From the NCBI RefSeq assembly GCF_013167455.1, contig NZ_CP038328.1: 64,000 nucleotides of DNA, one strand, 5' to 3'. The stretch's first letter is position 1, and every line of letters starts with the position of its first letter. Positions 1 to 6,000 of the stretch are shown here, piece after piece. Made by a program: the position numbers. Origin of the DNA: Escherichia coli O157:H7. GTDB lineage: Bacteria > Pseudomonadota > Gammaproteobacteria > Enterobacterales > Enterobacteriaceae.

Positions 1-3000
1 TACCTTCATTTGCCGCGCCAGCAGTCTATCGGCGAGCACCGGCGTCAGGCTTTCATAATTACCGCCAATCAAAATCCCGCACTCTTGTTCAATATATTCA
101 AACTTCGACCCTTCCAGATGTTGCAGCGAAAGGTTACGGAACAGTTTTACCGGCATATAGCTGTCTTCCAGCATCAGCGGTTTCCCTTCCACAAAACGAA
201 CGCGACGGGAGAAGTAGATCTGCTCGTTGATTTGAATCCGCAACTGGCTGGCAATTGCCGGAGGCGCAGGCATGATTTCAAAAATCAGCACCTGGCTGGT
301 GACTGTTTTTCCCTGCCGTTTTAACACCTCCACCAGCCCGGTCAGGCTGGCGGTTTGATGCAGCACATCTTTGCGCACCAGGTAAGTGCCGCTGCCGTGG
401 CGGCGGACCACCAGCCCCCACGCTACCAGCAGGTCAATCGCTTTACGGATGGTCATCCGCGATACCGCAAACTCTTCCGCCAGCTTTTTTTCACCGGGAA
501 GAAGGCTGTTTAGCGTGAAATCCGCGGAATTAAGTCGAATTCTTAACCGCTCCGCAATGCTTTTGTAGATCATCTCTAGATCTCTTTTTTGCCTGCAAGC
601 CCGGGTAATGCGCCCACAAGTTCTGCTTAATCAATTGAAAAAACATCTTTTTTTTAAAGATGTGTTCGATGCTGTGTACCAGTGCTCACAGAGATCTACT
701 TTTTCGCGAAAAAGTAGATCTCTACCGCCCAACGAAAAGCATGAAAGCGATCACGAATCCCATTGGGTCGTCATGTTCTGCCGATCGCATCTTCCTATCC
801 TCGCTCCAGGCCTGCCGCATAACCAATCAGGCTTCCTACTTACAGAATTGAGAAAAGAGGATGTGGAAATGCTCAGTCAAATTCAACGCTTTGGCGGCGC
901 GATGTTCACGCCAGTGCTGCTGTTTCCCTTCGCCGGGATTGTGGTGGGTCTTGCCATCTTGCTGCAAAACCCGATGTTTGTCGGGGAATCACTGACCGAT
1001 CCGAACAGTTTATTCGCGCAAATCGTACACATTATTGAAGAGGGCGGTTGGACGGTATTCCGTAATATGCCGCTGATTTTTGCTGTCGGTTTACCCATTG
1101 GCCTTGCTAAGCAAGCGCAGGGGCGTGCTTGTCTGGCGGTGATGGTGAGTTTCCTGACCTGGAACTATTTCATCAATGCGATGGGAATGACCTGGGGAAG
1201 CTACTTCGGCGTCGATTTCACTCAGGACGCGGTGGCAGGTAGCGGTCTGACAATGATGGCCGGGATTAAAACCCTCGATACCAGCATTATCGGCGCAATT
1301 ATCATTTCCGGCATTGTGACGGCGCTGCATAACCGTCTGTTCGATAAAAAACTGCCGGTTTTTCTCGGCATTTTCCAGGGGACGTCTTATGTGGTGATTA
1401 TCGCCTTCCTGGTGATGATCCCCTGTGCCTGGCTGACATTGCTCGGCTGGCCAAAAGTACAAATGGGGATTGAATCTCTGCAAGCGTTCCTGCGTTCGGC
1501 GGGTGCGCTTGGGGTGTGGGTTTACACCTTCCTCGAACGTATTCTGATCCCAACCGGTTTACACCACTTCATCTACGGACCGTTTATCTTTGGTCCGGCA
1601 GCTGTTGAAGGCGGAATTCAGATGTACTGGGCGCAGCATCTGCAAGAGTTCAGTTTGAGCGCCGAGCCGCTGAAATCGTTGTTCCCGGAAGGAGGTTTTG
1701 CCCTGCACGGTAACTCAAAAATCTTTGGTGCCGTGGGCATTTCTTTAGCGATGTACTTCACTGCCGCACCGGAAAATCGGGTAAAAGTGGCGGGTTTGCT
1801 GATTCCCGCAACCTTAACCGCCATGCTGGTGGGAATTACCGAACCGCTGGAATTTACCTTCCTGTTCATTTCACCGTTGCTGTTTGCGGTACACGCTGTG
1901 CTTGCGGCCTCAATGTCGACCGTGATGTATCTCTTTGGTGTGGTGGGCAACATGGGCGGAGGTCTGATTGACCAGGTTTTACCGCAAAACTGGATCCCGA
2001 TGTTCAGCAACCACGCGGATATGATGCTGACCCAAATCGCCATTGGGTTGTGCTTTACCCTGCTGTACTTCGTGGTTTTCCGCACCCTGATTCTGCAATT
2101 CAACATGTGCACGCCGGGACGTGAAGATGCGGAAGTGAAACTCTACTCAAAAGCCGAATACAAAGCCTCGCGAGGCCAAACCACCGCGGCAGAGCCAAAA
2201 AAAGAGCTGGATCAGGCTGCCGGTATCCTGCAAGCCCTGGGCGGGGTCGGCAATATCTCCAGCATTAACAATTGTGCGACGCGTCTACGCATTGCACTGC
2301 ATGACATGTCACAAACGCTGGATGACGAAGTCTTTAAAAAGCTGGGAGCGCACGGCGTCTTCCGTAGTGGCGATGCCATTCAGGTGATCATTGGTCTGCA
2401 TGTATCCCAGCTGCGTGAACAGCTCGATAGCTTAATTAATTCTCATCAATCAGCAGAAAATGTTGCCATTACGGAGGCAGTATAATGACCAAATTCTCAG
2501 TGGTTGTCGCAGGCGGTGGAAGCACCTTTACGCCAGGCATCGTGTTGATGCTCCTGGCGAATCAGGACCGTTTCCCGCTTCGTGCACTGAAATTTTATGA
2601 TAACGATGGTTCGCGGCAGGAAGTGATTGCCGAAGCCTGTAAAGTCATCCTTAAAGAAAAAGCGCCGGATATTGCGTTTAGTTACACCACCGATCCTGAA
2701 GTGGCGTTCAGCGACGTTGATTTTGTCATGGCGCACATCCGCGTCGGCAAATACCCGATGCGCGAACTGGATGAAAAAATCCCGCTGCGCCACGGCGTTG
2801 TTGGTCAGGAAACTTGCGGACCCGGCGGAATAGCGTACGGCATGCGTTCCATTGGCGGCGTCCTGGAACTGGTGGATTATATGGAAAAATATTCACCAAA
2901 CGCCTGGATGCTCAACTACTCCAACCCGGCAGCAATTGTTGCAGAAGCCACGCGTCGTCTGCGCCCGAATGCGAAAATCCTCAACATCTGTGACATGCCA

Positions 3001-6000
3001 ATCGGTATTGAAAGCCGGATGGCGCAAATTGTTGGGCTGCAAGATCGCAAACAGATGCGCGTGCGCTACTACGGCCTGAACCACTTTGGCTGGTGGACAT
3101 CAATTGAAGATTTGCAGGGCAACGACCTGATGCACCAGCTGCGGCAATATGTCTCTAAGCACGGTTATGTTCCACCGCAGCAAGATACACATACTGAAGC
3201 GAGCTGGAACGACACCTATGCAAAAGCGCGGGATGTCCAGGCACTGGACCCGGATACATTGCCGAACACCTATCTGAAATATTATCTCTTCCCGGATTAT
3301 GTCGTTCAGCATTCCAACCCTGAACATACTCGCGCGAATGAGGTAATGGAACATCGCGAGAAACAGGTTTTCGATGCTTGCCGCGCCATTACGGCGGCAG
3401 GAAATTCAGCGGCGGGCAAGCTGGAAATTGACGAACATGCGTCATACATCGTCGATCTGGCGGCGGCAATTGCCTTCAACACTCAGGAGCGGATGTTGCT
3501 GATTGTGCCTAACAACGGGGCAATCCATAACTTTGATGATGAAGCTATGGTCGAGATCCCGTGTCTGGTCGGGCACAACGGACCAGAACCACTGGTGGTC
3601 GGCGATATCCCGCAGTTTCAGAAAGGGTTAATGAGTCAGCAAGTGGCGGTGGAAAAACTGGTCGTGGACGCCTGGGAACAGCGTTCATATCAGCACCTGT
3701 GGCAGGCGATTACGTTGTCGAAAACGGTACCGAGCGCCTCGGTCGCCAAAGCTATTCTGGATGAGTTGCTGGAGGCCAACAAAGCGTACTGGCCAGAGTT
3801 ACGTTAATTGTGTGGACTGGCATCCGTTGGGTGCTGGTCCGTATTCTTTAGCACGGCTGAAGGCGCATAACCAAATTTATGTTTAAAGGCTTTGCTGAAA
3901 TGAAAGGAGTCGAAGAAGTTGAGCGTATCAGCGACTTCGCCAACCGAGTTTCCTTGTTGCTTTAATAGCGATAGCGCCAGATCCAGACGCGCATCGAGGT
4001 AATATTCTTTCGGCGTCTTTCCGGTATAGCGTAAAAACAGACGACGCAACCAGGCTTCGCTACAGGGGATCGTGGCAGCCATATCGGCTACGCTCCAGCG
4101 TTGTTGCAGACTGGCATGTAAAGTGGCAATTAATTTTTCAATTTGCCGCCGTTGTGGATCTTTTTTACCGTCTGCGTACATAAGACAAATCCACTGATAA
4201 ATAATTTTCGTCAGAAAAGCGACTGCCAGATTATTTTTTATTGCTTCTGGTGAAGTTATTAACTCAGCAACTTCGGTGAGTTCCTGATTATAAATTTCGC
4301 CATTGTAAATAACGCTTTGCTGACCGATGGGAATATCCATCATACTGGTGGGGGTAAATTCCATCCAGTATTGTTCCCAGACTAAACCTTCACAGTGATA
4401 AGAGTGAATATCCATTGGCTTTAAAAATATAATACAGTTGCCATGCAGTGTTATTTGTTCGCCATTCTTTAAAAGAATCTTCCCACATCCTTGTACGGTA
4501 TACACCGCAACCCATGAGTTGGCGATAAGCGGTTTCTTCTTGTCCCGTGGCCAGATCACCCGGTAATGCTCGTCGGCGTAGGTATGCCAGAGCGAGATCA
4601 GAGAAATTCCGCTGGAGATCACATTTTCGTTAATCAATAAAGGAATATTGTATGGAGTTTCGTTTTTTACATCTGAAGTTTGCAATTTTCCATTCATTTT
4701 AATATCCCTCCGGCGAATTATGCTCACAACCTGAACTTAACAGAAAACAATCCGTTCAGGGATACGACGTTTGTATTTTAAGAATCTGACTGCCTGACCC
4801 GACGCATTTTACCTCTCCCTATATTCATGCGTCCGGGACATAAACATAAATAAGGGCTATGAGATGAATTCGTTACAAATCTTGAGTTTTGTCGGTTTTA
4901 CGCTGCTGGTGGCGATCATCACCTGGTGGAAGGTTCGCAAAACAGATACCGGATCGCAACAAGGCTATTTTCTTGCCGGACGTTCACTAAAAGCGCCGGT
5001 TATTGCCGCTTCGTTAATGTTAACCAACCTTTCCACGGAACAACTGGTTGGTCTTTCCGGGCAGGCCTACAAAAGCGGCATGTCGGTGATGGGCTGGGAA
5101 GTGACTTCAGCGGTGACGCTGATCTTCCTCGCGCTAATCTTTTTACCGCGCTATCTGAAGCGCGGCATTGCCACCATCCCCGATTTTCTGGAGGAACGTT
5201 ATGATAAAACGACGCGTATGATCATCGACTTCTGCTTCCTCATTGCCACCGGCGTCTGCTTTCTGCCGATTGTTCTCTACTCCGGCGCGTTGGCGCTCAA
5301 CAGCCTGTTTCACGTCGGGGAATCGCTACAGATTTCTCACGGTGCGGCTATCTGGCTACTGGTAATTTTGCTTGGTCTGGCGGGAATTTTGTATGCGGTG
5401 ATCGGCGGACTGCGCGCAATGGCAGTGGCGGACTCCATCAACGGTATTGGGCTGGTTATCGGCGGGTTGATGGTGCCGGTATTTGGCTTGATCGCGATGG
5501 GCAAGGGCAGCTTTATGCAGGGCATTGAGCAAATTACCACCGTTCACGCCGAGAAATTAAACTCAGTCGGTGGCCCGACCGATCCCTTGCCGATTGGCGC
5601 GGCATTTACCGGTTTAATTCTGGTGAACACCTTTTACTGGTGTACAAATCAGGGCATCGTGCAACGCACGCTGGCGTCAAAAAGCCTGGCGGAAGGGCAA
5701 AAGGGGGCGCTGTTAACGGCGGTGCTGAAAATGCTCGACCCGCTGGTACTGGTGCTGCCAGGGTTGATTGCGTTTCATCTGTATCAGGATCTACCGAAAG
5801 CCGACATGGCCTACCCGACGCTGGTCAATAACGTTCTGCCAGTGCCACTGGTGGGTTTCTTCGGCGCGGTGTTATTTGGTGCAGTGATCAGTACCTTCAA
5901 CGGCTTTCTGAATAGCGCCAGTACGTTATTCAGTATGGGTATTTACCGTCGCATCATTAACCAGAATGCCGAGCCGCAGCAGCTGGTCACCGTCGGGCGC

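Follow-up and report, generated by a model that had tools for sequence, protein, structure and literature searches.

The glv locus of Escherichia coli O157:H7 is very probably an intact, ancestral enterobacterial operon of the phosphoenolpyruvate (PEP)-dependent phosphotransferase system (PTS) for alpha-glucosides, corresponding to aglA-aglB of Klebsiella pneumoniae. We studied it in a 64,000-nucleotide stretch of one O157:H7 genome (assembly GCF_013167455.1, contig NZ_CP038328.1), hereafter the window, in which a permease, enzyme IICB (EIICB), is followed by a glucosidase of glycoside hydrolase family 4 (GH4). This reading rests on the integrity of the genes, their orthology, their conserved residues, and the purifying selection on them, as well as on what the lesions of E. 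coli K-12 are and how they are distributed. By analogy with orthologues that are approximately 80 to 88% identical, the O157 proteins would share the substrate range of those orthologues and their requirement for Crr (EIIA-Glc), and the state of the locus suggests that the operon is active in O157. The intact form as such is already known: it is annotated in RefSeq, its orthologues have been characterized biochemically and structurally, and long-standing descriptions call the K-12 copy cryptic. Nor is the intact state special to O157; it is ancestral and common to approximately 30% of sequenced E. coli.

An uninterrupted two-gene operon next to a divergent regulator

Gene calls were taken from the RefSeq record of E. 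coli O157 FDAARGOS_293, which is 100% identical to window positions 1 to 6000, as are other O157:H7 genomes. The record gives the order yidP (minus strand), EIICB (plus), GH4 (plus), yidL (minus), and the coordinates of both operon genes in our list of open reading frames (ORFs) are the same as those of the RefSeq coding sequences. The features are as follows.

1-573, minus strand: 5' part of yidP (RefSeq), divergent from the operon; the start codon ends at 573 and the 3' end lies outside the window
869-2485, plus strand: predicted alpha-glucoside PTS permease EIICB, 538 amino acids (Pfam, TIGR02005, RefSeq WP_000952127.1)
2473-2487, plus strand: junction compatible with translational coupling, consisting of a Shine-Dalgarno sequence GGAGG (2473-2477), 5 nucleotides, and TAATG (2483-2487), read directly from the sequence
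2485-3807, plus strand: predicted GH4 6-phospho-alpha-glucosidase, 440 amino acids (Pfam, phmmer, AlphaFold2 model, RefSeq WP_000160122.1)
3804-4697, minus strand: yidL, AraC family (RefSeq, identical O157 record)

A preliminary description of this locus, made from the sequence alone, had proposed a single EIICB ORF of 539 amino acids. The single frame holds, both as one ORF and as one RefSeq coding sequence, and the length is corrected to 538, the stop codon having been counted. The permease lies within a longer open frame (608-2485), whose conserved start codon, ATG at 869, gives the product MLSQIQRFGG... and is preceded by a Shine-Dalgarno sequence, AAGAGGA, at 855-861. The same description had proposed translational coupling of the two genes, and the junction agrees: the TAA stop of EIICB (2483-2485) overlaps the ATG of GH4 (2485-2487) by one A, an arrangement compatible with such coupling. 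The adjoining regulator had been assigned to the GntR/HutC group, and we find the same. The full YidP protein carries a GntR domain (PF00392, residues 3-64, 7e-21) and a UTRA domain (PF07702, residues 87-224, 1e-30), and this winged helix-turn-helix (HTH) plus UTRA architecture places it in the HutC subfamily. Neither WP_000952127.1 nor WP_000160122.1 bears a pseudogene flag in RefSeq, and no internal disruption of the window copy was found in the ORF list, the annotation, or the K-12 alignment. As a separate matter, a structured RNA leader such as a riboswitch or antiterminator was considered and rejected, as an Rfam search of window 1-5000 (E<=1) returned no RNA family.

The permease is of the alpha-glucoside type

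EIICB contains the Pfam domains PTS_EIIC (residues 10-346, 4e-71) and PTS_EIIB (453-482); Pfam and NCBIfam profile searches detected no EIIA domain in it. It scores 959.2 bits on TIGR02005, the model of alpha-glucoside-specific PTS transporter subunit IIBC, against a cut-off of 607.3, and the match spans model positions 1-524 of 524. On the sister models it falls below the cut-off in every case, with 316 versus 592 bits for glucose, 277 versus 632 for maltose (MalX), and 302 versus 553 for N-acetylglucosamine (GlcNAc). All 17 taxa compared share the sugar-binding GITE motif (residues 322-325) and the phosphorylatable Cys469 of NCATRLR, and the nearest solved structure is that of E. coli PtsG EIICB (8QSR, E 1e-57, residues 3-530). 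Judged by these matches, the window EIICB belongs to the alpha-glucoside-specific EIICB family and is orthologous to AglA of K. pneumoniae.

The legacy K-12 names "arbutin-specific IIC" and "6-phospho-beta-glucosidase" would instead make glv a beta-glucoside (arbutin) system. Indeed, glvC is still named "Arbutin specific PTS permease" in one genome survey (PMC2617782), and the GH4 family holds both alpha- and beta-specific enzymes. Against this, EIICB gains just 43 to 45 bits on the beta-glucoside and arbutin/cellobiose/salicin EII models, with the match confined to the EIIB domain, and the glucosidase is approximately 88% identical to AglB and 72% to GlvA of Bacillus subtilis versus 25 to 29% to solved 6-phospho-beta-glucosidases. 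We regard a beta-glucoside system as very improbable.

A naming problem of another kind also touches this gene. The NCBIfam equivalog model NF007255 (PRK09702, "PTS sugar transporter subunit IIB", 161 positions) matches window 2000-2485, that is, EIICB residues 378-538, which is exactly the equivalent of the K-12 GlvB pseudogene fragment. The full-length 538-residue EIICB seems to be called "subunit IIB" in RefSeq because NF007255 traces to that fragment.

The glucosidase is full length and keeps the functional residues checked

The preliminary description had also claimed a full-length, 440-residue GH4 protein with an NAD-binding motif, and ORF 2485-3807 bears this out. Both family profiles match from end to end: PF02056 (Glyco_hydro_4) at residues 6-184 (2e-66) and PF11975 (Glyco_hydro_4C) at 195-415 (4e-55). 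In phmmer searches, its alignment to K. pneumoniae AglB (6DUX) is free of gaps (E 7e-274), and B. subtilis GlvA (1U8X) is matched with E 9e-224. We modeled the protein with AlphaFold2 from an alignment of 22 sequences (predicted local distance difference test score [pLDDT], 90.2). The model superimposes on 6DUX with a template modeling (TM) score of 0.97 and approximately 88% identity and on 1U8X with 0.96 and approximately 72%, versus approximately 0.83 and 25 to 29% for the phospho-beta-glucosidases 1S6Y, 1UP7, and 5C3M.

None of the 22 homologues departs from the NAD motif (A9-G10-G11-G12-S13-T14, or AGGGST) or from D39, the acidic residue that ends strand 2. R93, N147, C169, D170, H200, Y263, and R283 are likewise present and are invariant in 17 to 22 homologues; they sit at the ungapped, +2 offset positions of GlvA C171, H202, D172, Y265, R95, N149, and R285. 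In GlvA, Rajan and colleagues (2004) and Yip and colleagues (2007) reportedly assigned the Cys and His as Mn2+ ligands, the Asp and Tyr as catalytic, and the Arg and Asn residues as phosphate binders. All these comparisons identify the window protein, at the level of sequence, as the full-length counterpart of K-12 glvG and an orthologue of AglB and B. subtilis GlvA, and by analogy its activity on 6-phospho-alpha-glucosides would depend on NAD+ and Mn2+.

K-12 carries a derived, multiply damaged copy

The preliminary description had portrayed the K-12 locus as having split IIC and IIB genes and a defective glucosidase, and it had called for an alignment against K-12. That alignment confirms the portrayal: the organization of the two loci differs, and the window copy is uninterrupted. 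The loci occupy the same site between yidP and yidL and are 98.7% identical in nucleotide sequence over their shared length. The K-12 record flags its permease gene with "internal stop" and its glucosidase gene as "frameshifted". We located the following differences in the window (plus strand).

1580-1582: EIICB codon 238, Pro in O157 and Gln in K-12 (P238Q, C1581A); Pro is invariant in 17 of 17 taxa
1973-1975: EIICB codon 369, CAG (Gln) in O157 and TAG (amber) in K-12 (C1973T, from base-by-base alignment)
3078-3585: 508-bp segment deleted in K-12 (GH4 codons approximately 198-367), frameshifting, from the K-12 alignment

The amber codon ends K-12 GlvC at 368 amino acids, and the Met that follows opens the 161-residue GlvB. 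Gln369 is kept in 11 Enterobacterales and Aeromonas sequences. The 508-bp deletion is bounded exactly by an 8-bp direct repeat, GAACCACT, at 3078-3085 and 3586-3593, which is typical of microhomology-mediated deletion. The position of P238Q, at a Pro shared by all taxa compared, indicates that it may be a second inactivating lesion in the K-12 permease. Strains with supE44/glnV44 read TAG as Gln, the wild-type residue at codon 369; with P238Q as an extra lesion, amber suppression alone may not restore GlvC function. The K-12 glv locus was reportedly found to be cryptic by Reizer and colleagues in 1994. A later study describes the K-12 homologues of the agl/glv genes as cryptic or truncated (PMC5309279). 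P238Q falls in an HHFIYGPFIFG motif.

Intact, glucosidase-deleted, and absent states coexist in E. coli

Full-length organization of these genes is found in 16 other genera. The complete order yidE-yidP-EIICB-GH4-yidL-yidK is present in Pseudocitrobacter, and the module with divergent yidP, EIICB, and GH4 occurs in Pseudocitrobacter, Enterobacter, Mangrovibacter, Klebsiella sp., Pantoea, Cedecea, Rahnella, Aeromonas, Vibrio, and Yersinia. The EIICB-GH4 pair reaches as far as the Firmicutes, Collinsella, and Brachyspira, with the genes full length throughout. Since outgroup genera have intact genes and synteny, the O157 form is ancestral and the K-12 form derived.

We then counted the allelic states in 5426 complete E. 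coli genomes; the collection, which consists of finished genomes, is biased, and the counts record the presence of segments rather than full ORF calls.

86-mer around codon 369 present: 4274 genomes
86-mer exactly O157-like (CAG): 3197 genomes
86-mer in the exact K-12 amber version: 348 genomes, the matches listed being laboratory derivatives of K-12
508-bp GH4 segment present: 1652 of 5426 genomes (approximately 30%)
K-12-type GH4 deletion, as deduced from these counts, the permease often intact: approximately 2620 genomes (approximately 48%; approximately 61% of locus-bearing genomes)
glv locus absent: approximately 1150 genomes (approximately 21%)

Both genes were annotated as intact in six of six segment-positive genomes of different lineages, sampled evenly down the match ranking. 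When O157 is compared with six other intact E. coli alleles, the ratio of nonsynonymous to synonymous substitution rates (dN/dS) is 0.00 to 0.03 for EIICB and 0.05 to 0.09 for GH4, which indicates strong purifying selection among intact alleles. These counts agree with the work of Touchon et al., in whose list glvC is one of the genes that differ in presence from one group of strains to another (PMC2617782).

The same data bear on whether the fused EIICB and full-length glucosidase could be an artefact of sequencing or assembly. We found no point in favor of an artefact, and we give it practically no credence: the CAG 86-mer recurs exactly in 3197 genomes and the 508-bp segment in 1652, both genes are intact in the six sampled lineages, and the same organization is seen in the 16 other genera.

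Horizontal acquisition of the locus was considered and rejected, given that its GC content (52 to 53%) is like that of the flanking core genes and synteny with Pseudocitrobacter is complete. On the same grounds, its absence from some E. coli is better read as loss. In one such strain, the urine isolate 21AR0173, yidE directly abuts a slightly shorter yidL. The three allelic states (intact, glucosidase deleted, and absent) form a natural series for the study of pathway decay. A further variant was seen in strain BS-01 (NZ_CP172816.1, 3749840-3750100), where the match is limited to the second half of the 508-bp segment, at 88% identity, under the annotation "hypothetical protein"; this may be a divergent or rearranged allele.

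The O157:H7 clade has a histidine at an otherwise invariant proline of the glucosidase

The O157 GH4 protein differs from all six of the other E. coli alleles by two substitutions, A43S and P217H. Position 43 is variable. The second is the following.

3133-3135, plus strand: GH4 codon 217, His, the O157:H7-clade substitution P217H

All 21 other GH4 homologues in the alignment, which cover 16 other genera from Klebsiella-like to Brachyspira, have Pro at position 217, as do the six other E. coli alleles. An exact His217 86-mer is present in 308 of 1649 segment-carrying genomes, and among the matches listed all are of O157:H7 type. In the structural model, residue 217 would belong to the opening turn of helix 216-226, which is of surface type, and it is not one of the known active-site residues.

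The yidP-EIICB spacer contains conserved candidate regulatory sites

We compared the 295-bp spacer between yidP and EIICB with the equivalent spacers of 14 genomes of other genera, which a degenerate DNA pattern scan had located, and 11 sequences were aligned. Four conserved blocks stood out, the fourth being the ribosome-binding site; the predicted sites are listed here.

576-585, plus strand: third copy of the motif GTAGATCTCT (9 of 10), adjoining and overlapping the yidP ribosome-binding region; possibly an auxiliary YidP site
690-723, no strand assigned: perfect 34-bp palindrome, candidate YidP operator, AGAGATCTACTTTTTCG and CGAAAAAGTAGATCTCT, with 17-nucleotide arms 100% complementary
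737-758, no strand assigned: predicted CRP-like site with the core CATGA-AAGCGA-TCACG (740-755); no other block of the intergenic alignment is as conserved
796-801, plus strand: predicted -10 hexamer TATCCT in the conserved block TTCnTATnCTC (T127, A128, T132, and C133 invariant), with a poor -35

The half-sites of the palindrome, GTCTAC and GTAGAC, are HutC-like and flank an AT-rich spacer. In 11 enterobacterial and Aeromonas intergenic regions, (T)GTCTA-N~16-TAGAC(A/C) is conserved, with invariant half-site columns and a variable spacer; the half-sites are separated rather than abutting, an unusual arrangement for HutC-type operators, which are palindromes of GT-TA-AC type. Only in the O157 allele is the palindrome perfect. 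K-12 and the six other E. coli alleles have two to four mismatches, K-12 itself having two. In comparison with the Klebsiella-type operator, the right-hand half-site of E. coli is TAGATC, whereas the others have TAGAC(A/C). Across the 64-kb window, GTAGATCTCT is matched four times with at most one mismatch, and three of these matches lie within 576-723; the equivalent TAGACCTCT is conserved at the position of 576-585 in other genera. An RNA hairpin was rejected as an explanation of the palindrome: the half-site sequence itself is conserved, mismatches in the left arm go uncompensated in other genera, and a U-tract is absent.

The CRP-like block has the consensus AAAACCATGAAnGCGATCACGAA, with invariant alignment columns C71, T73, G74, T82, C83, A84, and C85, and in Vibrio albus it reads AGTGA-N6-TCACG. 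If transcription starts near 808, as predicted, the center of the CRP-like box would fall near -60, which is class-I spacing, and that of the palindrome near -101. A scan for terminators and consensus sigma-70 promoters yielded nothing of use around the operon and no strong promoter upstream of it, which, together with the poor -35, fits an activator-dependent promoter.

Some strains carry a damaged regulator gene. A 79-bp frameshifting deletion in yidP (equivalent to window 316-394), flanked by CTGCCGT microhomology, occurs in E. coli B (B-ZidR) and CAVP766, in which EIICB and GH4 are intact; the 79-bp segment is missing from approximately 256 of 4274 locus-bearing genomes. Strains with this deletion may be natural derepressed variants.

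Proposed function and the case for a silent operon

We model the working of the operon on AglA/AglB of K. pneumoniae and GlvC/GlvA of B. subtilis, both of them characterized systems. A phosphoryl group would pass from PEP to enzyme I, HPr, and EIIA-Glc (Crr, encoded elsewhere), and from there to Cys469 of the EIIB domain. EIICB would import alpha-linked glucosides and phosphorylate O-6 of the glucosyl unit in transit through EIIC. The GH4 enzyme would then split the 6-phospho-alpha-glucoside into glucose-6-phosphate and the aglycone by the NAD+/Mn2+-dependent oxidation-elimination chemistry of family 4. YidP, as a HutC-type repressor bound at the 690-723 inverted repeat, probably keeps the operon off, and cAMP-CRP at the conserved 737-758 site is probably needed for expression.

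Several observations weigh against a functional operon. At the protein level, the O157-clade His217 at an otherwise invariant Pro is a caveat to a functional GH4. Upstream, the strong sigma-70 promoter is wanting; cross-genus conservation is the sole basis on which the promoter, CRP site, and operator are predicted; and the candidate operator would lie approximately 100 bp upstream of the predicted start, which is unusual for simple repression. At the population level, approximately 70% of complete E. coli genomes are without the glucosidase or the whole locus, so that selection for the pathway would appear weak or confined to certain niches in E. coli. E. coli is generally scored as palatinose-negative in clinical identification panels, which would be difficult to reconcile with an active system in 30% of strains. 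In the literature searched, we found no growth, transcription, or enzyme data for any intact E. coli glv operon. The one related finding concerns the type strain, DSM 30083T, for which palatinose, turanose, maltitol, and methyl-alpha-glucoside all scored negative (PMC4334874); its bearing on this question depends on the glv genotype of that strain.

These points can be assembled into an alternative in which the frames are intact and the operon is nevertheless silent in O157, whether repressed, weakly transcribed, or crippled by P217H: an early-stage pseudogene operon. In its favor are a substitution that is restricted, among the matches listed, to the O157:H7-type allele of 308 genomes, the lack of a strong consensus promoter and of a published phenotype in the literature searched, and the decay seen elsewhere in the species, where approximately 2620 genomes carry the 508-bp deletion, approximately 1150 are without the locus, and K-12 has accumulated extra lesions. 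However, all of the active-site and cofactor-site residues checked are kept, and the model puts residue 217 in a surface-type helix turn, outside the known active-site residues. The regulator is also intact, as are the CRP-like box and the operator-like palindrome, which is perfect in O157, and dN/dS across intact alleles is very low. On balance we consider a silent operon unlikely and retain an intact alpha-glucoside PTS operon as the better description of the O157 locus.

A broader interpretation combines several elements: that the three states form a stable polymorphism, that the intact allele confers an unrecognized, strain-specific growth on alpha-glucosides, that YidP acts through an unusual operator with split half-sites, and that yidP-deleted lineages such as E. 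coli B are constitutive. We put this combination forward tentatively and consider it less likely than not. If it is true, the sugars concerned would be isomaltulose, trehalulose, turanose, maltitol, and isomaltose, which are sucrose isomers and sugar substitutes.

Comparison with characterized systems

The closest characterized system is that of K. pneumoniae, whose AglA and AglB were reportedly characterized by Thompson and colleagues in 2001 and by Pikis and colleagues in 2006. As in O157, an EIICB without EIIA is followed by a GH4 enzyme; the GH4 proteins are approximately 88% identical with a TM score of 0.97 (AglB structures 6DUX and 6DVV), the O157 EIICB shares approximately 80% identity with homologues of the Klebsiella clade, a GntR gene like yidP lies divergently, and the residues checked are shared. 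The two differ in that the O157 GH4 has S43 and H217 where AglB has Ala and Pro. One functional study reports that E. coli K-12 expressing AglA plus AglB, or GlvC plus GlvA, grows on the five sucrose isomers, isomaltose, methyl-alpha-glucoside, and similar sugars; that this growth depends on the host crr; and that B. subtilis GlvC/GlvA in E. coli give crr-dependent use of isomaltose and panose (PMC5309279).

The B. subtilis glvA-glvR-glvC genes (malA/malP) resemble the O157 operon in pairing a GH4 6-phospho-alpha-glucosidase with an EIICB that uses a separate EIIA-Glc. They differ in that glvA comes first, the regulator is of a different type, and Firmicutes EIICB homologues are only approximately 50 to 58% identical. 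GlvR of B. subtilis belongs to the RpiR family. E. coli PtsG and MalX share with the window EIICB their superfamily, the order EIIC-linker-EIIB, and the CATRLR cysteine; unlike them, the window EIICB scores below the glucose, maltose, and GlcNAc cut-offs and far above the alpha-glucoside cut-off. The glvC/glvB/glvG genes of E. coli K-12 occupy the same locus as in O157 and differ by the amber codon, P238Q, and the 508-bp deletion, none of which the O157 copy has.

K-12-based metabolic models and names (glvC, glvB, "arbutin-specific", "PTS sugar transporter subunit IIB") misdescribe the gene that most E. coli carry. Approximately one-third of sequenced E. coli, including O157:H7, may use sucrose isomers or alpha-linked sugar substitutes, unlike K-12. 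Such use of alpha-glucosides could have a bearing on gut and food niches and on differential media.

Other features of the window

Downstream of the glv locus, the window contains several further features. Between ilvN and uhpA, positions 14,442-17,435 hold an insert of 36 to 40% GC with three genes annotated as "hypothetical protein", an O157-type island. In the identical O157 record, the adenine permease gene adeQ (24,534-25,867) is annotated as frameshifted, hence as a pseudogene. A gene pair for a RelE/ParE-family toxin and an HTH antitoxin-like protein lies at 26,488-27,148, between yicN and nepI. Beyond yicL and a gene with an SdiA-regulated domain begins the locus of enterocyte effacement (LEE) pathogenicity island (approximately 31,900-64,000; GC 31 to 45%), with espG, ler, esc/sep, map, tir, cesT, and eae.

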